Shown here piece by piece: positions 35,518 through 44,866 of a DNA stretch of 64,000 bases (its first letter is position 1; every line of letters starts with the position of its first letter). The DNA is taken from IMG/VR virus record IMGVR_UViG_3300049982_000337, positions 1 through 64,000 of that record. One strand, written 5' to 3'. The DNA is from a virus. Its lineage: Duplodnaviria > Caudoviricetes. The position numbers were made by a program, and so were the translations under genes. Under the pieces are notes generated by a model. That model had not been told where the DNA came from, ran no database searches, and was given only the letters and a program-made list of their open reading frames with translations.

Positions 35518-36102
35518 ATGAGTGACGGCCCATCGCACGATGCGCGGCTGACGATCCAGCAGGCCCAGCGCCTTAAGGGCCGCTTCGTCTATGGCTTGGC
35601 CGATGGCGATGGCATCTTCTACGTCGGCCAAACACGAAACCCGGCTCGGCGCTTCGAGGCTCATGGCGGGCGGCGCACGAACAACACCGCCCTACGCGAC
35701 CGCCTTGGGGGCGCCGGAGCCGATCTCCGCGTCGTCATCCTTAGGCGCAACCCAGGGGACCTGAACGCTGCAGAGCGGGAGGAAATCCGCGCCCGCTCCG
35801 GCACCCTCGTCAATCTCGTCGGCGGCGATCATTGGTCGTGGGAGCGGCATAGGCGGATCCCGTGGGCGGCTGGCACCGGCATCTTCAGCCCCAGCGCCTA
35901 TGCGATGACCAAGACGCCAAGGGAGCATAGATCGACGGTTCGGGCCGCGCTCGCGCTGTTGACCGACGCGGAGCGCTGCGTCGTCGAGGTCGGGCTGCTT
36001 CGTGATTTCCCGCCGCACCTCGCAAGCCGTTTCGATGGATGGCTCGAAACGACGCGCGAGAAGATGATCGCGTGCATGGAAGCCGCGTATGGGGCGGCCT
36101 AG
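35518..36102 (+). CDS. GIY-YIG endonuclease
   Basis: FVYGL...FYVGQT.NPARRFEAH...AAEREEI...LVN. Confidence 0.8.
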   Translation: MSDGPSHDARLTIQQAQRLKGRFVYGLADGDGIFYVGQTRNPARRFEAHGGRRTNNTALRDRLGGAGADLRVVILRRNPGDLNAAEREEIRARSGTLVNLVGGDHWSWERHRRIPWAAGTGIFSPSAYAMTKTPREHRSTVRAALALLTDAERCVVEVGLLRDFPPHLASRFDGWLETTREKMIACMEAAYGAA

Positions 36103-36550
36103 TAAGTTCACCGCGAAGATCGGCAGGGAGATTTGCGACCGCCTCTCAGAGGGCGAACCGCTTGCCCGCATCTGTCGCGATCCTCACATGCCTGCCGTTA
36201 GGACAGTAGGGGACTGGCGAGAGGTTCATCCCGCGTTTTCCGCTGACTTCGCGCGCGCACGCGACGACGGGTTCGACGCCATCGCGGCCGACTGCCTTCT
36301 GATCGCCGACACGCCCGAACTCGGCGTCGAGACGCTTACGAAGGGGACGGGGAAGAAGAAGGCCAAGGAGTTGCGAGAGGCCGATATGCTCGGTCACCGA
36401 AAGCTCAAGATCGAGACGCGCCTAAAGCTGCTGGCCAGGTGGGACCCGCGTCGATACGGCGAGCGCCGTCAGGAGGAGGGCGGCATCAACGCCGCTGACG
36501 CCGCGGCTCAGATCCGCGAGATCCTGAAGGCGACCGAGGGCGACGGCTGA
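36089..36550 (+). CDS. terS: Terminase small subunit
   Basis: MGRPSKFT...EICDRLSEGEPLARICRD..MP...TV..W...F...ARAR...IETRLKLLARWDPRRYGE. Confidence 0.92.
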   Translation: MGRPSKFTAKIGREICDRLSEGEPLARICRDPHMPAVRTVGDWREVHPAFSADFARARDDGFDAIAADCLLIADTPELGVETLTKGTGKKKAKELREADMLGHRKLKIETRLKLLARWDPRRYGERRQEEGGINAADAAAQIREILKATEGDG

Positions 36551-37893
36551 TGGCTGTCCCCAAGCGCCTCTACCCGCTGCGACCCCACGGGAAGCAGGCG
36601 GCCTGGATGGCCAGCACCGCACGGTTCAATGTCGTGCCGGCCGGACGCCGGAGCGGAAAGACCGAACGGGCGAAGCGCAAGCTCGTGAACCGCGCGATGC
36701 GGGGGACCAGCTTCGATGATCCCCGGTTCTTCGCCGGCGCGCCGACCCGCGATCAGGCCAAGGCCATTTACTGGGCGGACCTGAAGGCGATGATCCCGCG
36801 GGCCCTGATGGCCTCGGCGCCCAGCGAGACCGAGCTCTGCATCCGCCTGATCACGGGCGCCGAGGTCTGGGTTCTCGGCATGGACAAGCCGGAGCGGATC
36901 GAGGGGCGGCCGTGGGACGGCGGCATCCTCGACGAGTTCGGCAACATGAAGCCGACGGCCTGGGGCGCGAACGTCCGGCCGGCGCTCTCGGACCGGCGCG
37001 GCTGGTGCGACCTGATCGGGGTGCCCGAGGGGCGCAACCACTACTACGAGCTCTACAAATACGCCCAGGGCGACGACCCCGAGTGGGACTTCTTCAGCTG
37101 GTTCTCCTCCGACATCCTGCCGGCTGAGGAGATCGCGGCGGCCAAGCGCCAGCTCGACGAGCTTCTGTTCGCCCAGGAGTACGAGGCGAGCTTCATCAAC
37201 TTCACGGGCCGGGCTTACTACCCGTTTCTCGATACAAGCCACACCGCCCCGCTCGCCTACAATCCGGACGCGACGCTGGTCTTCTGTTTCGACTTCAACG
37301 TCGAGCCCGGCGTGGCGGCGATCTGCCAGGAGCAAGTCCTGCCCGGCCAGTACGAGCGCAGCCCCGAGGGCGTGGCGCTGTTGAACAGGCCCATCACCGG
37401 CACCGCCGTCATCGGCGAGGTCTGGATACCGGCCAACAGCAACACCCCGGCAGTCTGCCGCAAGCTGATCGCTGACTGGGGCGCCCACCGGGGCAAGATC
37501 ATCTGCTACGGCGACGCCACCGGCGGCTCGCGCGGCTCGGCCAAGGTCGAGGGCAGCGACTGGGAGCTGATCGCCAAGGAGTTGCGGCCGCACTTCAAGG
37601 ACCGGGTGTCCTTCCGGGTGAAGCCGGCCAACCCGGCCGAACGCGCCAGGCTGAACGCCATGAACAGCCGCCTGAAGACGGCGTCGGGCGAGATCCGCAT
37701 GATGGTCGATCCCGCCAAGGCGCCGCATGTCGTCCGTGACCTCGAGGGCGTCGTCCTGCTGAAGGGCGGGTCTGGCGAGCTGGACAAAAAGGCCACGGAC
37801 CTGACCCACATCACTGACGGCCTCGGCTACTACGTCGAATACGAGTTCCCCGTGACCAACCGGTCGACCTCGATTACCTCCCTCAGGATCTAG
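36550..37893 (+). CDS. terL: Terminase large subunit
   Basis: PAGRRSGKT Walker A, GILDEFG Walker B, FCFDFNV and HITDGLGY nuclease motifs. Confidence 0.95.
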   Translation: MAVPKRLYPLRPHGKQAAWMASTARFNVVPAGRRSGKTERAKRKLVNRAMRGTSFDDPRFFAGAPTRDQAKAIYWADLKAMIPRALMASAPSETELCIRLITGAEVWVLGMDKPERIEGRPWDGGILDEFGNMKPTAWGANVRPALSDRRGWCDLIGVPEGRNHYYELYKYAQGDDPEWDFFSWFSSDILPAEEIAAAKRQLDELLFAQEYEASFINFTGRAYYPFLDTSHTAPLAYNPDATLVFCFDFNVEPGVAAICQEQVLPGQYERSPEGVALLNRPITGTAVIGEVWIPANSNTPAVCRKLIADWGAHRGKIICYGDATGGSRGSAKVEGSDWELIAKELRPHFKDRVSFRVKPANPAERARLNAMNSRLKTASGEIRMMVDPAKAPHVVRDLEGVVLLKGGSGELDKKATDLTHITDGLGYYVEYEFPVTNRSTSITSLRI

Positions 37894-37901
37894 GAGCGCC
37901 G

Positions 37902-39362
37902 ATGACTGCGGCTGTGAACTCGCGCTCAGCCGCGATGGAAGCGCTCGCCTGCGAGTGGCCGCTGCTCGAAGCTCTGATGGGCGGGACACCGGCCATGCGC
38001 GCGGCCAAGGAGAAGTTCCTACCGAAATTCCCGAACGAGGATCTGGACGCCTACAAGGCCCGCCTCGAGACCGCGACCCTGTTCCCCGCCTACCGTCGCA
38101 CAGTCGCGGTCATGGCGGGCAAGCCGTTCGCGAAACCGCTGACATTCTCCGCCGAAACGCCCGTCGAGATCCGTGGCGAGGCCGCCGACGAGAAGGTGCC
38201 CGGGTCGAAGGACGTGGCCGGCTGGGCCGACGATATTGACCGTGAGGGCGTCAACCTTCACACCTTCGCCTCGGAAATGATGGTCGAGGCCCTGGCCTTC
38301 GGCCTCGGCGGGATCCTTGTCGAAGCCCCGAAGCCGATCCAGGGCGCGGCCCTGACCGTCACGCGTGCCGAGCAGGCCGCCGCCGGAGTCAGGCCGTATT
38401 TCGTCAGGGTCCGGCACAACCAGATCCTCGGCGCCCGGCTGGATCGGATCGCGGGCAAGGCAGTGCTGACGCAGCTCCGCCTGCTGGAGCATGTCACCGA
38501 GGCTGACGGCGAGTGGGGCGAGAAGACCGTCGAGCGAGTTCGCGTGCTCGAGCGCGGCAGCTGGAGGCTGTTCGAGAAGAAGGCCGCGACCAAGGGCGAA
38601 GAGTGGATCTCGGTCGAGGAAGGGAGGTCCGGCCTGGCCGAAATCCCGTTCGTGCCGCTTTATGGCAGCCGGCTCGCCTACATGATGGGCGCGTCGCCAC
38701 TGCTGGACCTCGCCTACCTGAACGCAAAGCACTGGCAGAGCCAAAGCGACCAGGACACCATCCTGCACGTCGCCCGGGTTCCGATCCTGTTCGGCAGGGG
38801 CTTCCAGGAAGACGACACGATCGTCGTCGGAGCCGCCACTGCCATCAAGGTCAGCAGCACTGAGGCTGACCTGAAGTTCGTCGAGCACACCGGCGCAGCG
38901 ATCGATGCGGGGAAGGCGTCGCTCGACAGCCTCGAAGACCAGATGATCCAGGCCGGCGCCGAGCTGCTGGTGAAGAAGCCCGGCGCGCGCTCGGCCACGG
39001 AATCGGCGAACGACGCCGAGGCCAACAAGTCGGACCTGCAGCGGATCACCGAAGGGTTCGAGGACAGCCTCGACCAGGCCCTGCAGTTCATGGCCGACTA
39101 CGCCAAGCTCGGCTCCGGCGGCAATGTCACGCTCTACAAGGACTTCGGCGCGGCGCTGCTCAGCGAAGCCAGCGGCCAGCTCATCGTCTCGATGTGGCAG
39201 GCGGGCATGATCTCGAAGCAGACCGCGATCGAGGAGTTGAAGCGCCGTGGCGAGCTGTCGCCCGAGGTCAACGCCCAGCTTGAAGCCGAGCTGATCGACG
39301 AAGAGGGCCCGGCGCTCGGCGCCATCACCGACGACGAGGACGACGCGGGCCTAGCCGCCTAG
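37902..39362 (+). CDS. Portal protein (DUF4055 family)
   Basis: LMGGTPAMRAA.E.FLPKFPNED..AY.ARL..ATLFPAY.RTV; PLLDLAYLNAKHWQSQSD. Confidence 0.9.
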   Translation: MTAAVNSRSAAMEALACEWPLLEALMGGTPAMRAAKEKFLPKFPNEDLDAYKARLETATLFPAYRRTVAVMAGKPFAKPLTFSAETPVEIRGEAADEKVPGSKDVAGWADDIDREGVNLHTFASEMMVEALAFGLGGILVEAPKPIQGAALTVTRAEQAAAGVRPYFVRVRHNQILGARLDRIAGKAVLTQLRLLEHVTEADGEWGEKTVERVRVLERGSWRLFEKKAATKGEEWISVEEGRSGLAEIPFVPLYGSRLAYMMGASPLLDLAYLNAKHWQSQSDQDTILHVARVPILFGRGFQEDDTIVVGAATAIKVSSTEADLKFVEHTGAAIDAGKASLDSLEDQMIQAGAELLVKKPGARSATESANDAEANKSDLQRITEGFEDSLDQALQFMADYAKLGSGGNVTLYKDFGAALLSEASGQLIVSMWQAGMISKQTAIEELKRRGELSPEVNAQLEAELIDEEGPALGAITDDEDDAGLAA

Positions 39363-39366
39363 CCAC

Positions 39367-41049
39367 ATGGCCACGGCAGCGGAGCGGCTTCACGACCAGG
39401 CGGTCATCCACCGCATCGGCCTGAACCGATATTCGAACGCGCTCGTCCGCAAGATGATGGCGCTGCTCAACCGGATCGAGGTCAACGCGGTCCAGAAGCT
39501 CGCCGACGCCGGCGTCGAGGGCGCGGGGCCCAGACGGCTGAACCAGCTGCTCGACGCAATCCGCGAGATCCAAGCCCAGGGGTGGGCGCAGCTCAAGCCG
39601 GAGCTGATGACCAACCTCGACGGCCTGGCCGCCAACGAGATGGACTTCGCCATGAAGTCCGTCGCCTTCGCCGCGGCCGCCGTCGACGTCGAGCTTGGAG
39701 GCGGCGCCCCGGCGCTGGCCCAGGTGGTCGGCGCCGTCCGCGCCAGGCCGTTCCAGGGCCGGCTCCTTCGGGAATGGCTCAACGGTGAGGAGGAGGGGAC
39801 CAAGAAGCGGGTCCGCGAGGTCATCCGCCAGGGCTTTGTTGAAGGCCAGACCACAGACCAGATCGTGCGCACCTTGCGCGGGACCAAGGCCAACCAGTTC
39901 AAGGACGGCGTGCTCGAACGCTCGCGCCGCGGCCTTGAGGCTATGGTGCACACTGCGGTCACCCACACCTCGACCGTCGCCCACCAGGCCGTCTTCGAGC
40001 AGCACGCCGATGTCGTCACAGGCGTGATCTGGACGTCGACGCTGGACGCCAGGACTACGCTGATCTGCATCTCCCGGTCGGAGAAGGTCTTTCCGATCGA
40101 TAAGGGTCCGCGGCCGCCGGCGCACATCCGGTGCAGGTCGACGATGCGACCGCAGGTCCGCGCGATCGAGGGCGTGGCCCCCATGAAGGTCCAGTCCTAT
40201 CCGGAGTGGCTGGCGAGGCAGCCGGCCGCGGTGCAGGACGACATCCTGGGCTCGGCGCGCGGCGCGCTCTACCGATCCGGGGGCGTGAAGGTTGAAGGGT
40301 TTGTCGATCACGCCGGCAAGACGCTTACGCTCGACCAGCTGCGGAAGCGTGACGACGCTGCGTTCAGGCAGGCGGGGCTCGACCATCCGATTAAGCCCCC
40401 GCCAGGGACGCCAAAGGACGAGATCGTTCGGTTCCTCGCCGACAAGCCGGCACAACGGGCGCTACTGACCAGGTTGATGGGCAGCGGAGCCTCCGGGATC
40501 GAGCTTCATGAGATGGTGGTCGAGGGCGCGATAGAGCGAAATGCCTGGAAGGCCGAGGTCAACGATCTCCTGGCGATCCGCCATTACACCGGCCGCGCCT
40601 ACAAGGCGATCAATCAGCGGATGCGCGAGGAAGGGGGGCTGCTCGAGGACCGCCAGTTCACTGCTCTGGCAGGGCGTGGCATCGAGACCCTGCCGCAGCA
40701 CGAAGGGTCGACTTGGCGCGCGCCTGCCACGCGGGCCGACGTCGCAGACCGCATGTGGGAGCGCTCCATCGTCGGCGAAGACTTTGACATGGGCAATCAC
40801 CTGATCTCCACCTCGTCGTCGCGGGCCTTCGCGGTCGATTGGGGCAGTGCCGGGCGCTTGGTGCTCAAGATCCGGAACCCAAAGGGAGCCTCGGTCGACG
40901 AGGTCTCACTCAACCGCGGGGAGGGTGAAGTTCTCTTGCCCGCAGGAATGCGTTATCGTGTGGTGCGCAAGAGCGAAGAAAACCTGCCAGGGCAGTCTGG
41001 CGCGCTTCGGAATGTGCGCCTGGTGGAGCTGGAGATCATCGAGCCGTGA
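39367..41049 (+). CDS. MuF (SPP1 gp7-like) head morphogenesis protein fused to a C-terminal ADP-ribosyltransferase domain
   Basis: MuF: VHTAVTH...WTSTLDARTTLIC...PPAHIRCRS; ART: YTG.AY..IN..MR, TWR, ISTSS, EGEVLLP. Confidence 0.88.
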   Translation: MATAAERLHDQAVIHRIGLNRYSNALVRKMMALLNRIEVNAVQKLADAGVEGAGPRRLNQLLDAIREIQAQGWAQLKPELMTNLDGLAANEMDFAMKSVAFAAAAVDVELGGGAPALAQVVGAVRARPFQGRLLREWLNGEEEGTKKRVREVIRQGFVEGQTTDQIVRTLRGTKANQFKDGVLERSRRGLEAMVHTAVTHTSTVAHQAVFEQHADVVTGVIWTSTLDARTTLICISRSEKVFPIDKGPRPPAHIRCRSTMRPQVRAIEGVAPMKVQSYPEWLARQPAAVQDDILGSARGALYRSGGVKVEGFVDHAGKTLTLDQLRKRDDAAFRQAGLDHPIKPPPGTPKDEIVRFLADKPAQRALLTRLMGSGASGIELHEMVVEGAIERNAWKAEVNDLLAIRHYTGRAYKAINQRMREEGGLLEDRQFTALAGRGIETLPQHEGSTWRAPATRADVADRMWERSIVGEDFDMGNHLISTSSSRAFAVDWGSAGRLVLKIRNPKGASVDEVSLNRGEGEVLLPAGMRYRVVRKSEENLPGQSGALRNVRLVELEIIEP

Positions 41050-41237
41050 CGGCGGAACTGTCCGAAATCCGGATCAGCAGCATGGCGGATTATCCGCCGG
41101 CGAGGCTGTATCTCGCCTCCCACAAATGGACGGATGACGGCTACACGGTCGCCGAGGCCGTGGCGCGCTACATGGAAATGCATCCGGACGCCAACGAGGA
41201 CGATGTTCGGGCCGAAGTCGAGGCCGCCGCGGCGTGA
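41046..41237 (+). CDS. Small acidic protein, candidate immunity protein of the MuF-ART toxin
   Basis: 63 aa, GTGA coupled directly to the toxin stop; function inferred from position only. Confidence 0.5.
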   Translation: MTAELSEIRISSMADYPPARLYLASHKWTDDGYTVAEAVARYMEMHPDANEDDVRAEVEAAAA

Positions 41238-41491
41238 AGGAAAGCGGCAGCCGCCTCCGCCTCATCGAGGGCGGTCAGCCGGACAAGCCGAAGCGGAAGC
41301 GCAAGCCCCGCGAACAAAAGCCGTGGGAATGCCGGGTCTGCGAGACCGACATCGGGACAAGGACGCGCACCCTCGTGAAGGTCCGGCATGGCGCCTTCGA
41401 AGACGGCGAGCTGAAAGTCACCGGCGGCTCCGACCACTGGGCCTGCGCCATGTGCATGGCCCGGGGAAAGCTGACCCTGCAGACCGCATGA
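41234..41491 (+). CDS. Small Zn-ribbon protein
   Basis: CRVC...CAMC; coupled. Confidence 0.6.
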   Translation: MKESGSRLRLIEGGQPDKPKRKRKPREQKPWECRVCETDIGTRTRTLVKVRHGAFEDGELKVTGGSDHWACAMCMARGKLTLQTA

Positions 41492-41745
41492 CCCTCGACG
41501 AACTGATCCGACAGGATCGGGACCTTCCGCACCGCGTTGAGGTCGATGCCGAGCACTACGGGATCATCCTCGACGTCGTGAAGGCTCGGCCCGGCGACTT
41601 CGAGGTCAATTTCTGCGGCTGGCCGGTCTTCCTAGTCGACTGCAGGAACTGGGAGGACGCAGTTTACATCCGCATCCTCGGCGGCGTGATCATCCGAACC
41701 ACGCCCGACAATCTGAGCAAGCCCGGCTACAGCGTCGACATCTGA
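41488..41745 (+). CDS. Hypothetical protein
   Basis: Start MTLDELIRQ at 41488, ATGA coupled. Confidence 0.55.
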   Translation: MTLDELIRQDRDLPHRVEVDAEHYGIILDVVKARPGDFEVNFCGWPVFLVDCRNWEDAVYIRILGGVIIRTTPDNLSKPGYSVDI

Positions 41746-41904: not shown

Positions 41905-41925
41905 GCCGCCTCCGGGCGGCTTTTT
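41905..41925 (+). terminator. Intrinsic terminator
   Basis: GCCGCC-TCCG-GGCGGC-TTTTT. Confidence 0.8.
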
Positions 41926-41936
41926 CATGCCCAGCA

Positions 41937-41993
41937 CCCGGGATCGGGGAGGGCGCACCGGGCGGGATCGCCCTTTCCGCCGGCGGATGCCGG
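41937..41993 (+). promoter_or_regulatory. Three tandem GGAU-tetraloop hairpins in the scaffold gene leader
   Basis: CCCG-GGAT-CGGG, GGGCG-GGAT-CGCCC, CCGGC-GGAT-GCCGG; the last overlaps the GGAGA RBS. Confidence 0.7.
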
Positions 41994-42007
41994 AGAAAGC
42001 CACCACC

Positions 42008-42820
42008 ATGAAACTGAAGACCACCCTCCTGGATGGCGTGTCCTACGCTGTCCTCGATGCCGCAGGCCTGCCGGTCTACACCCACGACGACGGTAAGGAG
42101 GTCGGGTTCGACGCCGCCGGCGCCGTGGCCACCATCAAGGCCCGCAACGGCGAGGCGCAGAGCCACCGCGAGGCCAAGGAGAGTGCTGAGGCGGCCCTGA
42201 AGGCCTTCGAGGGCATCGAGGATGCCGAGGCGGCCCGCACGGCTCTGGAGACAGTCCGTAACCTGGCCAGCGGCGACCTGAAGACGGCGGCGCAGATCAA
42301 GGAAATCACTGACGCCGCCAAGCGCGCTGCCGAGGAGCAGGTAGCAGCCGCGGTCAAGGCCAAGGACGAGGAGATCAAGCGGGTCGCTGACGAGCGCGAC
42401 AGCGTCACCTCGGCGTTCCATGGCGAACTGATCGGCGGCGGGTTCAGCCGCTCCAAGTTCATCACCGACAAGATCGCCGTGCCGGTGGACCTGATGCAGT
42501 CGCAGTTCGGCCGCAACTTCAAGGTCGAGGACAACAAGCTCGTCGCCTACGGGCCCGACGGCAAGAAGATTTACAGCCGAGCCAACCCGGGAAACGTCGC
42601 CGAGTTCGACGAAGCCCTGGAAGAGCTCGTCAACGCCTACCCCAGCCGGGATCACATCCTGAAGGGCAACATTGGAGGCGGCGGCGGTGCGCCGAACAGC
42701 CCCCACCTGCCGAACGGCGGCAAGTCCATCGCTCGTGCGGACTTCCTGAAGTTGGCTCCCGAAGCTGCTGCGGCCACGGCCAAGGAAGCGCGCGAAGGCA
42801 AGATCGCCATCGTGGACTAA
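42008..42820 (+). CDS. Capsid scaffolding protein (DUF6651-like)
   Basis: MKLKT...GLPVYTHDDGKEVGFDA...EAQSHREAKE...FDEALEELVNAYPSRDHILKG. Confidence 0.85.
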   Translation: MKLKTTLLDGVSYAVLDAAGLPVYTHDDGKEVGFDAAGAVATIKARNGEAQSHREAKESAEAALKAFEGIEDAEAARTALETVRNLASGDLKTAAQIKEITDAAKRAAEEQVAAAVKAKDEEIKRVADERDSVTSAFHGELIGGGFSRSKFITDKIAVPVDLMQSQFGRNFKVEDNKLVAYGPDGKKIYSRANPGNVAEFDEALEELVNAYPSRDHILKGNIGGGGGAPNSPHLPNGGKSIARADFLKLAPEAAAATAKEAREGKIAIVD

Positions 42821-42933: not shown

Positions 42934-44103
42934 ATGGGCACGCTTACCCTTACGAACCTCATTGGCCCGATTTACGAGGCCTTCGACGTCGTCTCCCGCG
43001 AGCGCGTCGGGTTCATCCCCGCCGTTTCGCAGGACTTCAGCGCCGAACGCGCCGCTGTCGGCCAGCTGATCACCTCGCCTGTCGTCGGCCAGATGCCGGC
43101 CGAAGACCTCACCCCCGCCGCTGCTTCGGGCGACACCCCGAACCAGACCGTCGGCACTGTGCAGATGACCATCTCCAAGGCTCGCTCGGTGCCGTTCGGG
43201 ATCACCGGCGAAGAGAACAAGGGTCTGAACAGCGGGGGCAACACGGCCACGATCAACCGTGACCGGATCGCCCAGGCACTGCGGACCCTGACCAACGAGG
43301 TCGAGGTCGACATCTACGAGGAGATGCACAAGACCGTCAGCCGCGGTTACGGCACCGCCGGCACCACGCCGTTCGGCACCAAGGACGACTTCTCTGACTT
43401 TGCCTCCTCGCTCGAAATCCTCGACGAGAACGGGGCGCCCGAGACCGACCGCCACATGGTCCTTGGCTCGGCCGGCATCCGCAACCTGCGCGGCAAGCAG
43501 TCGGGCCTTTTCAAAGCCAATGAAGCAGGCACCGACGAACTGCTGCGTCGCGGCGTGCTCTCCGACATCGAAGGCTTCGGCATTCACCAGTCGGCGGCCA
43601 TCCGCAACGCGGTTACGGCCGGCACGGGCGCCTCGGCCACCACGAACACCACCGGCTATGCGGTCGGCTCCACCGTCATCACCCTGGCCTCGGCTGGGAC
43701 TGGCACGATCCTCGCCGGCGACCTGGTCGCTTTCGCGGGCGACACCCGCAAGTACATGGTGGTGTCCGGTGATGCGGATGTTTCCGGCGGCGGGACCTTC
43801 ACCATCGCTGAACCCGGCCTTCTGAAGGCGATCCCGAACTCTGCAACGGCGATCACCGTCACCGCCGCCGCCGTCCGGAACGTCTTCCTCCACCGCTCGG
43901 CCCTCCAGCTCGCCACCCGCGCGCCGGCCATGCCGGACGAGGGGGATGCTGCTGACGACGTCATGGTCATCAGGGATCCGGTCTCGAAGATCGCCTTCGA
44001 GTTCTGCGTCTACAAGCAGAAGCGCCAGGTCCGTTACGAGGTGAACCTGGCCTGGGGCAAGAAGCTGATCGCCCCGCGCCACGCCGGTCTCCTGCTCGGC
44101 TAA
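42934..44103 (+). CDS. Major capsid protein (P22 coat-like)
   Basis: LTNLIGPIYEAFDVVSRERVGFIPAV...; position after scaffold; strong terminator follows. Confidence 0.9.
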   Translation: MGTLTLTNLIGPIYEAFDVVSRERVGFIPAVSQDFSAERAAVGQLITSPVVGQMPAEDLTPAAASGDTPNQTVGTVQMTISKARSVPFGITGEENKGLNSGGNTATINRDRIAQALRTLTNEVEVDIYEEMHKTVSRGYGTAGTTPFGTKDDFSDFASSLEILDENGAPETDRHMVLGSAGIRNLRGKQSGLFKANEAGTDELLRRGVLSDIEGFGIHQSAAIRNAVTAGTGASATTNTTGYAVGSTVITLASAGTGTILAGDLVAFAGDTRKYMVVSGDADVSGGGTFTIAEPGLLKAIPNSATAITVTAAAVRNVFLHRSALQLATRAPAMPDEGDAADDVMVIRDPVSKIAFEFCVYKQKRQVRYEVNLAWGKKLIAPRHAGLLLG

Positions 44104-44206: not shown

Positions 44207-44866
44207 ATGCGCACCATCAACGTGAAGCCCTGGGCCGATGGCCAAGGCGAGTTCGTGATCATCGACGTCGCCAGCTTCAACCCCAAGCTCCACGAGCGGC
44301 TCGACGGCGACGACACGCCGCTTCCGGGCCCCTTCGACGACCACAGCCGCGACCAGCTGATTGACTTGGCCGTCGTCAGCTTCCGCGAGGACATGGCAGG
44401 CCTTTCCGACGACGACCTGCGCCGCGGTCTTGAAGCCCTGGACCGTCGTCGCCAGCGCGAGGCGGAGGGGCCGTTCAATGGCGCCGACCCGGACCTGTTC
44501 GACCACGACGGCGACGGCAAGCCCGGCGGCAGCCTCGGCAACGCTCCCGGCGCCCGCGGCGGCGAGGAACTGGATCGGCCTGATGGCGCGCCGGTTGGCG
44601 AGCAGGTCAGCGGAGCAACCACGGACGGGGTGATCTTGGACCCTGTCGCCGCAAAGGGCCTCACCAAGCAGGAGATCATCGCCGACCTGGAGGGCATGGG
44701 TATCGAGTTCGACCCCAGGGCCGCCAAGGCCGACCTGCTGGCCCTGCGCAATGAAGCCCGCGCCGCGCGCGACGCCCAAGCCACCATCGACGCCGCCGCG
44801 GCAGTCGCCACCCAAGCTGAGATCGACCTGGGCGACGACACCCAGGCGTCCGGCGCCGGCGAGTAG
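44207..44866 (+). CDS. Head-associated protein with HeH/LEM-like C-terminus and DxDxDG motif
   Basis: DLFDHDGDGKPGGS; LTKQEIIADLEGMGIEFDPRAAKADLLAL. Confidence 0.6.
   Translation: MRTINVKPWADGQGEFVIIDVASFNPKLHERLDGDDTPLPGPFDDHSRDQLIDLAVVSFREDMAGLSDDDLRRGLEALDRRRQREAEGPFNGADPDLFDHDGDGKPGGSLGNAPGARGGEELDRPDGAPVGEQVSGATTDGVILDPVAAKGLTKQEIIADLEGMGIEFDPRAAKADLLALRNEARAARDAQATIDAAAAVATQAEIDLGDDTQASGAGE

Follow-up and report, generated by a model that had tools for sequence, protein, structure and literature searches.

A MuF–ADP-ribosyltransferase fusion gene overlapped by a small gene

We analyzed a stretch of 64,000 nucleotides (hereafter the window), which corresponds to bases 1-64000 of the 75,096-base IMG/VR provirus record IMGVR_UViG_3300049982_000337 (Duplodnaviria; Caudoviricetes). 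Our analysis focused on a gene that encodes a MuF head protein fused to an ADP-ribosyltransferase (ART) domain and on a short open reading frame (ORF) that overlaps its stop codon. The window presents a G+C content of 66.7% and carries a tyrosine integrase at 85-534 on the minus strand, and the completeness of the provirus was estimated at about 90% (CheckV). The main features of the locus are the following:

39367-41049, plus strand: MuF-ART fusion gene, 560 amino acids (aa), 61.6 kDa (Pfam, PHROG)
39367-40386, plus strand: MuF / SPP1 gp7-like head-morphogenesis core, aa 1-340 (PHROG 241)
40387-40452, plus strand: junction and linker, aa 341-362, HPIKPPPGTPKDEIVRFLADKPAQ; apparent ancestry crossover and start of the putative cassette
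40453-41046, plus strand: ART domain of the R-S-E clade, aa 363-560
41046-41237, plus strand: 63-aa acidic protein with four predicted helices (hereafter the small protein), candidate immunity protein and inhibitor of the ART domain

The N-terminal part of the fusion protein is matched by Phage_Mu_F (PF04233) at aa 148-260 (30.3 bits; Pfam cut-off of 29.6) and, from aa 1 to aa 340, by PHROG 241 ("head morphogenesis"; 3e-110). TIGR01641 reached 34 bits, under its cut-off of 39.65. The sequence PPAHIRCRS, from which a MuF/gp7 domain had been proposed in the original prediction, is found at aa 250-258, and these matches bear the proposal out. Each SPP1 capsid contains one or two copies of gp7, bound to the portal (PMC5576092). 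The host probably belongs to the Caulobacterales, a sequence-based assignment made because the nearest MuF relatives are found in Phenylobacterium, Caulobacteraceae and Brevundimonas.

When the fusion protein was compared to 50,697 cultured-phage records, no match spanned 80% of its 560 aa: most matches end near aa 338, and weak similarity to the C-terminal part was found in only five records. The extension past the MuF core is about 220 aa long (aa 341-560), longer than the approximately 170 aa first estimated, and is composed of a proline-rich linker, a helical sub-domain and the ART core. The residues P341, P345, G347, D351, F356, L357 and Q363 at the junction do not vary among 27 proteins.

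A Tre1-like R-S-E ART at the C-terminus

The family ADPrib_exo_Tox (PF03496) matches aa 480-538 of the fusion protein with 28.1 bits (Pfam cut-off of 23.4) and with 32.6 bits in the genome scan. The motifs originally read as those of an ART are all present: HYTGRAYKAIN (aa 406-416), TWRAP (aa 449-453), STS (aa 481-483) and EGEVLLP (aa 519-525). By sequence, the closest solved relative is chain B of 6DRE/6DRH, Tre1 of Serratia proteamaculans (E = 3e-7; aa 403-539). This alignment places R451 (40717-40719) on the arginine of "YRG", S481-T-S483 (40807-40815) on "STS" and E519-G-E521 (40921-40923 for E519 and 40927-40929 for E521) on "EAE". A structural model of the domain, generated with AlphaFold2 from an alignment of six sequences, presents a predicted local distance difference test (pLDDT) score of 66.6 overall and of 76-94 in the catalytic core. 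Searching with this model using Foldseek yielded 100 matches at E ≤ 0.001; among the 50 of these that were listed, nearly all are R-S-E ARTs (C3larvin, Tre1, VahC, XopAI, SpvB, C2-I, ExoS/T and CDTa, among others). Profile and structure comparisons, both proposed earlier as checks against ADPrib_exo_Tox, agree in this respect. By its domain, fold and catalytic residues, the C-terminal domain belongs to the R-S-E (C3/VIP2/CT) group of mono-ADP-ribosyltransferases and is Tre1-like, the activity itself being predicted from the sequence.

No variation was observed among 27 related proteins at R451, S481 and E521, and almost none at S483 and E519. The ART domains of the relatives are 37-70% identical to that of the window, and the ratio of nonsynonymous to synonymous substitution rates (dN/dS) of the domain ranges from 0.20 to 0.84. 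Nearly all relatives of this Tre1-like subtype (27/28) are MuF fusions and, where named, their carriers are proviruses or genomes of Alphaproteobacteria (Hoeflea, Mesobaculum). We considered that the domain could be a catalytically dead decoration of the head, and the small ORF an unrelated phage gene, which we regard as extremely improbable. Nothing directly favors this explanation, and the moderate quality of the model leaves some room for it, but it conflicts with catalytic residues that are invariant across such divergent domains, with the dN/dS values and with the fact that the small ORF tracks the ART across different backbones (see below).

Arginine is predicted as the acceptor residue because the domain presents an E-x-E motif, the signature of arginine-specific ARTs (PMC8120803). 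Alternatively, the substrate could be a nucleic acid, or NAD+ itself through an NADase activity, such that the ART would deplete NAD, damage DNA or arrest translation. Precedents have been reported among polymorphic toxins with an ART fold, some of which act on 23S rRNA and others as NADases (PMC8661411, PMC13285283). However, the R, S-x-S and E-x-E residues are conserved here, including both glutamates, as in arginine-specific protein ARTs, and the nearest relatives, Tre1 and Bxa, modify arginine. These observations make a substrate other than protein arginine quite improbable.

The small ORF is a conserved gene

The small ORF starts with a GTG codon at 41046 that overlaps the TGA stop codon of the fusion gene (41047-41049). 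An acidic 63-aa ORF entered by a GTGA overlap had been described originally, and our measurements agree: the isoelectric point (pI) of the protein is 4.35, its net charge is -8, and the G+C content at third codon positions (GC3) of the ORF is of coding type (0.80). The protein is acidic in every locus (pI 4.1-4.9), and the NTGA overlap of start and stop with the ART gene was observed in five loci (the window, L001, L003, L004 and L013). Its dN/dS of 0.16-0.65 indicates purifying selection. The small ORF is a real, conserved gene.

The small protein was predicted to form four short helices (pLDDT of 80.9), and the family presents the motif Y-x-P-x-x-L-Y ... Y-M-x-L-H-P-D-A-D-x-x-x-V-R-A-E-I-E. 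A HMMER search of 1.84 billion cluster representatives returned 18 matches, about 14 of which were judged genuine. The genuine members are 45-176 aa long and contain one to three copies of a domain of about 45 aa (hereafter the small domain). Four long proteins (879-1579 aa) were considered as repeat-bearing relatives and rejected as compositional artefacts, with family scores at noise level and Pfam matches devoid of any significant stretch. The small protein presented no match in Pfam, PHROG, NCBIfam or PADLOC, and the ESM Atlas returned nothing usable. Its best match among the sequences of the PDB had an E-value of 0.09, the Tri1 chains of 6DRE/6DRH remaining unmatched, and a Foldseek search of its model against solved folds gave no match at E ≤ 0.001.

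The small gene follows the ART domain across MuF loci

We surveyed 160 loci encoding MuF relatives (80 viral contigs and 80 genome contigs) using hidden Markov models of the MuF core, the ART, the small domain and the ORF that follows the small gene in the window, which encodes a Zn-ribbon-like protein; absence was judged within the fetched flank. Most loci encode a short MuF (128/160), and extensions of 100 aa or more were found in 27 of the 160. These extensions include the ART of the window, a second ART subtype and HExxH-type domains. The small domain was found directly downstream in all 16 evaluable loci with the ART subtype of the window, a seventeenth locus being cut by the contig end, and in none of the 143 other loci with a MuF homolog. 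The second ART subtype and the HExxH-type domains each precede different small ORFs. In a Phenylobacterium metagenome-assembled genome (MAG; locus L030), a MuF homolog 57% identical to that of the window ends with "...AFQRAGLTP*" at a position equivalent to aa ~341 of the window, and this short MuF is directly followed by the Zn-ribbon homolog, with neither ART nor small gene.

Pairwise comparisons revealed that the parts of the locus present different degrees of divergence. Relative to L013, the window is 70% identical in the portal, 67% in the MuF core and 66% in the Zn-ribbon ORF, with identities of 51% in the ART and 53% in the small ORF. Relative to L001, whose portal and capsid belong to entirely other types, identities are 70% for the ART, 66% for the small ORF, 53% for the MuF core and 39% for the Zn-ribbon ORF. 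The comparison with L003 yielded 67% for the ART, 65% for the small ORF, 53% for the MuF core, 33% for the Zn-ribbon ORF and 28% for the portal. Sliding identity placed the switch at aa ~340-360. Across 15 non-redundant loci, the distances of the ART and of the small ORF presented the highest correlation (r = 0.73; partial correlation given the MuF core of 0.54), and the distances of the Zn-ribbon ORF correlated with those of the MuF core (0.56) and not with those of the ART (-0.06); these 15 loci are mutually related, such that permutation P-values are indicative only. One exception was observed in L112, where the small ORF is 65% identical to that of the window and the ART only 41%. The 684-aa portal protein upstream of the MuF-ART gene in L001 (1950-4004) and L002 (889-2943) matches Phage_portal_3 and Acb1 (PF23474), suggesting that a phosphodiesterase domain of the anti-CBASS type is fused to the portal.

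The ART of the window's subtype was also found outside of a recognizable MuF context. In locus L192, which belongs to a phage whose portal is of the Head-tail_con type and whose coat is of the Phage_capsid_2 type, the 737-aa protein P0046 presents this ART after 560 N-terminal residues in which no MuF domain was detected, and its junction shares the motif FLAD-x-PAQ-x-x-LL with the window. A 68-aa member of the small family (E = 1.6e-16) follows P0046 with a 4-nt overlap. More distant ART copies, found in L008, L009 and L022, precede forms of the small domain with two or three repeats. In L008 (2-1864) and L009, the frameshifts that break the distant ART differ between the two assemblies, and the protein encoded next, of 176 aa, contains the small domain three times; either a sequencing error or a decaying toxin whose immunity gene was retained may account for this.

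These comparisons indicate that the ART domain and the small gene are of one ancestry, and that the portal, the MuF core and the Zn-ribbon gene are of another. Such co-inheritance of the ART and the small gene is, as judged from sequence relationships, the behavior of a toxin-immunity cassette. Both elements are rare in the order of a Phenylobacterium relative: across 401 genomes of this order, the ART subtype of the window was found only once, and weakly, and the small domain in the starting genome alone. The same sample contains a different ExE-type ART protein of at least 384 aa that reaches the contig end (L027:2-2116); its gene is convergent to an unfused 262-aa MuF-like gene and no small-domain gene follows it.

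The Zn-ribbon-like protein is encoded in 106 of the 160 MuF loci, whether or not an ART is present. The companions are about 80 aa long, with a four-cysteine motif and a pI of 9.4-11.1 (9.8 for the copy of the window):

41234-41491, plus strand: 85-aa basic Zn-ribbon-like protein (CxxC...CxxC), companion of the MuF backbone; GTGA overlap with the small ORF
L030:3474-3773 and L013:4144-4395: Zn-ribbon companions elsewhere

We rejected this ORF as a second immunity gene, since it follows MuF with or without an ART and shares the ancestry of the backbone. From its distribution, the Zn-ribbon protein appears to be an uncharacterised constant companion of the MuF lineage.

Copies of the small domain away from the ART

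Several copies of the small domain were found without an ART nearby. In a Caulobacteraceae MAG, a small-domain gene overlaps by 4 nt the SRAP gene (YedK-like) that directly precedes it and lies beside a DpnI-type restriction gene; another follows a gene that ends in an MmeI C-terminal domain, and a protein with two repeats adjoins an integrase. The first two correspond to the following features:

L005:935-1815 and L007:1-541: SRAP- and MmeI-associated small-domain genes

The chromosome of Phenylobacterium sp. LjRoot97 contains a head-to-head pair of small-domain genes (L010:3699-4186), and a second Phenylobacterium genome contains one copy or more in the vicinity of the same PI-PLC gene (L011:2703-3153). 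The neighbors are of housekeeping type in both cases (hydrolases, a TonB receptor, a methyltransferase and NUDIX), and no ART of the window's subtype was found in either genome. Orphan immunity genes are common in polymorphic toxin systems (PMC11699363). The copies without an ART fit this pattern and, by analogy, may be orphan immunity genes.

These copies also bear on another explanation, namely that the small protein is a chaperone or loading adaptor that folds the ART or steers it into the procapsid, rather than an inhibitor. Strict co-occurrence and shared ancestry with the ART would suit any obligate partner, and an ART toxin that requires a chaperone has been described (TreX and TrxA; PMC11606950). 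However, some of the copies in genomes or elements devoid of the ART consist of two or three tandem repeats, and chaperones without a client would be hard to explain; moreover, polymorphic toxin systems as a rule encode a small inhibitor downstream of the toxin (PMC5576092, PMC11699363). We therefore view a chaperone as unlikely.

If the small protein is an inhibitor, it might found an undescribed family of immunity proteins that act purely by binding Tre1-like ARTs, with the toxin-less copies being antidotes kept by bacteria or rival elements against an ART injected by phages. We propose this extension tentatively and hold it to be somewhat doubtful. If true, the toxin-less copies would represent a defense by captured immunity genes. 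The orphan copies offer a concrete route to ask whether bacteria use such captured genes against enzymes injected by phages.

A candidate toxin-immunity cassette in the head module

We consider it fairly probable that the locus is a MuF-type polymorphic toxin-immunity cassette located in the head module of a temperate phage. This agrees with the original prediction, which placed the fusion in the class of MuF toxins with a small downstream candidate immunity gene and is supported by the domains, the genomic setting and the co-varying small ORF. We infer the following course for packaging, injection, toxicity, inhibition and target. The MuF core would bind at the portal and become part of the capsid, carrying the Tre1-like ART through the proline-rich linker. 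The ART would probably enter the next host cell along with the DNA and there transfer ADP-ribose from NAD+ to arginine in at least one cytoplasmic protein of the host. Translational coupling on the same late mRNA would yield the small protein, which would most likely bind and block the ART without enzymatic reversal and so keep the producing cell unharmed up to assembly. As no ADP-ribosylhydrolase (PF03747) is encoded in the 75-kb provirus, control genomes being positive, binding would have to suffice for protection.

Several observations weigh against such a cassette. The quality of the ART model is moderate overall and poor in the N-terminal helices. The absence of a hydrolase from the provirus differs from the two closest characterised bacterial ART toxin systems. 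No relative of the small protein was detected among solved structures or known immunity families, and the binding and inhibition attributed to it are predicted. No sigma-70-like promoter was found inside the coupled block, so expression of the small gene in the lysogen, and with it protection of the lysogen, is unsupported. Finally, about half of the clusters of the small family are not near any ART. The main uncertainty is that the small domain may have a wider or different role, which would fit the copies without an ART equally well.

The lack of a promoter-like site of its own and the coupling of the small gene to the late head operon also favor another role for the ART: similar to Alt of phage T4, it would be injected as an effector of host takeover or anti-defense, reprogramming host proteins or inactivating a defense system to the benefit of the infecting phage rather than poisoning cells, and the small protein would be only a safety catch late in infection. 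RNA polymerase and MazF are modified by Alt, itself a packaged R-S-E ART (PMC8120803), and a takeover role was proposed by Jamet et al. for weakly toxic MuF cargo (PMC5576092). Against this role, Tre1, the closest relative, is an antibacterial toxin, and the dedicated partner together with the orphan copies in ART-less genomes suggests harm to cells that lack the partner. Takeover is a possibility that we take seriously, although we do not expect it to be the role of this ART; the two roles are not mutually exclusive.

Comparison with known systems

The class of MuF-ART fusions is already known and this locus is a further example. In the survey of Jamet et al. (2017, PMC5576092), ARTs represent 14% of 191 MuF toxins, with EFV of Enterococcus faecalis V583 as the tested example, and MuF-ART fusions were also described by Iyer, Aravind and colleagues (PMC5512222, PMC9503650). 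The locus resembles the toxins of the former survey in several respects: an N-terminal MuF, encoded among the packaging and head genes of a prophage; a toxin domain at the C-terminus that is common to other delivery systems, here homologous to the type VI secretion PAAR toxin Tre1; a small ORF (<150 aa) directly downstream, here co-varying with the toxin domain; and C-termini that vary on one MuF core (PMC5576092). In contrast, MuF toxins in that survey are vastly overrepresented in prophages of Firmicutes, and those of Proteobacteria mostly present extensions without known domains, whereas we describe an alphaproteobacterial-type provirus with a Tre1-like ART and an apparently undescribed partner family.

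The toxin Bxa of the Bacteroides stercoris prophage PhiBxa was functionally characterised together with Bsi and BAH (Alexei et al. 2024, PMC11699363). As in the window, this system combines a MuF-ART fusion in the head-morphogenesis region, an arginine-type ART and an adjacent small protein (PMC11699363). Bsi binds and blocks Bxa, and the same role for the 63-aa protein would be a functional analogy. At 92 residues or more, Bsi is longer than the 63-aa protein. Bxa also possesses an immunity protein of the ARH1-type hydrolase family, BAH, with no counterpart in the provirus of the window. Tre1 is delivered by type VI secretion on a PAAR protein, whereas the ART of the window presents a MuF N-terminus instead; and its immunity protein, Tri1, combines a DraG-like hydrolase with a plug at the N-terminus (PMC8120803), whereas the 63-aa protein presents neither a hydrolase domain nor sequence similarity to Tri1. 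Like Alt of T4, the domain of the window is an R-S-E ART; carriage in the head, injection with the DNA and modification of arginines of many host proteins are features of Alt. Alt is a stand-alone protein of a virulent phage and is not known to have a partner inhibitor gene.

What is new here lies in the details. The partner family appears to be undescribed and presents unusually clean comparative support. The Tre1-like subtype is found almost solely on MuF, and a hydrolase is absent. MuF-carried toxins are widespread, but studies in bacteria are limited to Apk2 and Bxa, with EFV having been tested in yeast. The locus represents a compact case of two genes without a hydrolase, with an enzyme related to the FtsZ-targeting toxin Tre1. 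The Caulobacterales, the inferred host lineage, are a classic model for studies of the cell cycle and cell division.

Neighboring genes of the provirus

The other features identified around the locus are the following:

36089-36550, plus strand: terminase small subunit (PHROG 1482, 1.4e-30)
36550-37893, plus strand: terminase large subunit (PHROG 2, 5.7e-31)
37902-39362, plus strand: portal protein (Pfam DUF4055, 1.9e-43; PHROG 145 portal, 4e-122)
41488-41745, plus strand: 85-aa ORF, non-conserved; ATGA overlap with the Zn-ribbon gene
41905-41930, plus strand: terminator-like hairpin with a T-run, which ends the coupled block ahead of the scaffold gene
41927-42820, plus strand: scaffolding protein (Pfam DUF6651; PHROG 206/784)
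42934-44103, plus strand: major capsid protein, P22-coat-like (Pfam PF11651; PHROG 283)

The order of terminase small subunit, terminase large subunit, portal, MuF, scaffold and coat is that of the DNA-packaging/head module of the provirus. The MuF-ART gene, the small ORF, the Zn-ribbon ORF and the 85-aa ORF at 41488-41745 are chained through 4-nt overlaps, and the block closes at the hairpin at 41905. The latter ORF presents a coding-type GC3 of 0.84; no relative was found in the related loci and no match in PHROG or PADLOC, and we excluded it as a member of the cassette for its lack of relatives in these loci. No tRNA was found within the window. Just after the coat gene, a 219-aa protein (44207-44866) presents a C-terminal match to an Arc-like repressor of the ribbon-helix-helix type (PHROG 1539, 3.6e-7), which is an unusual location for a regulator.

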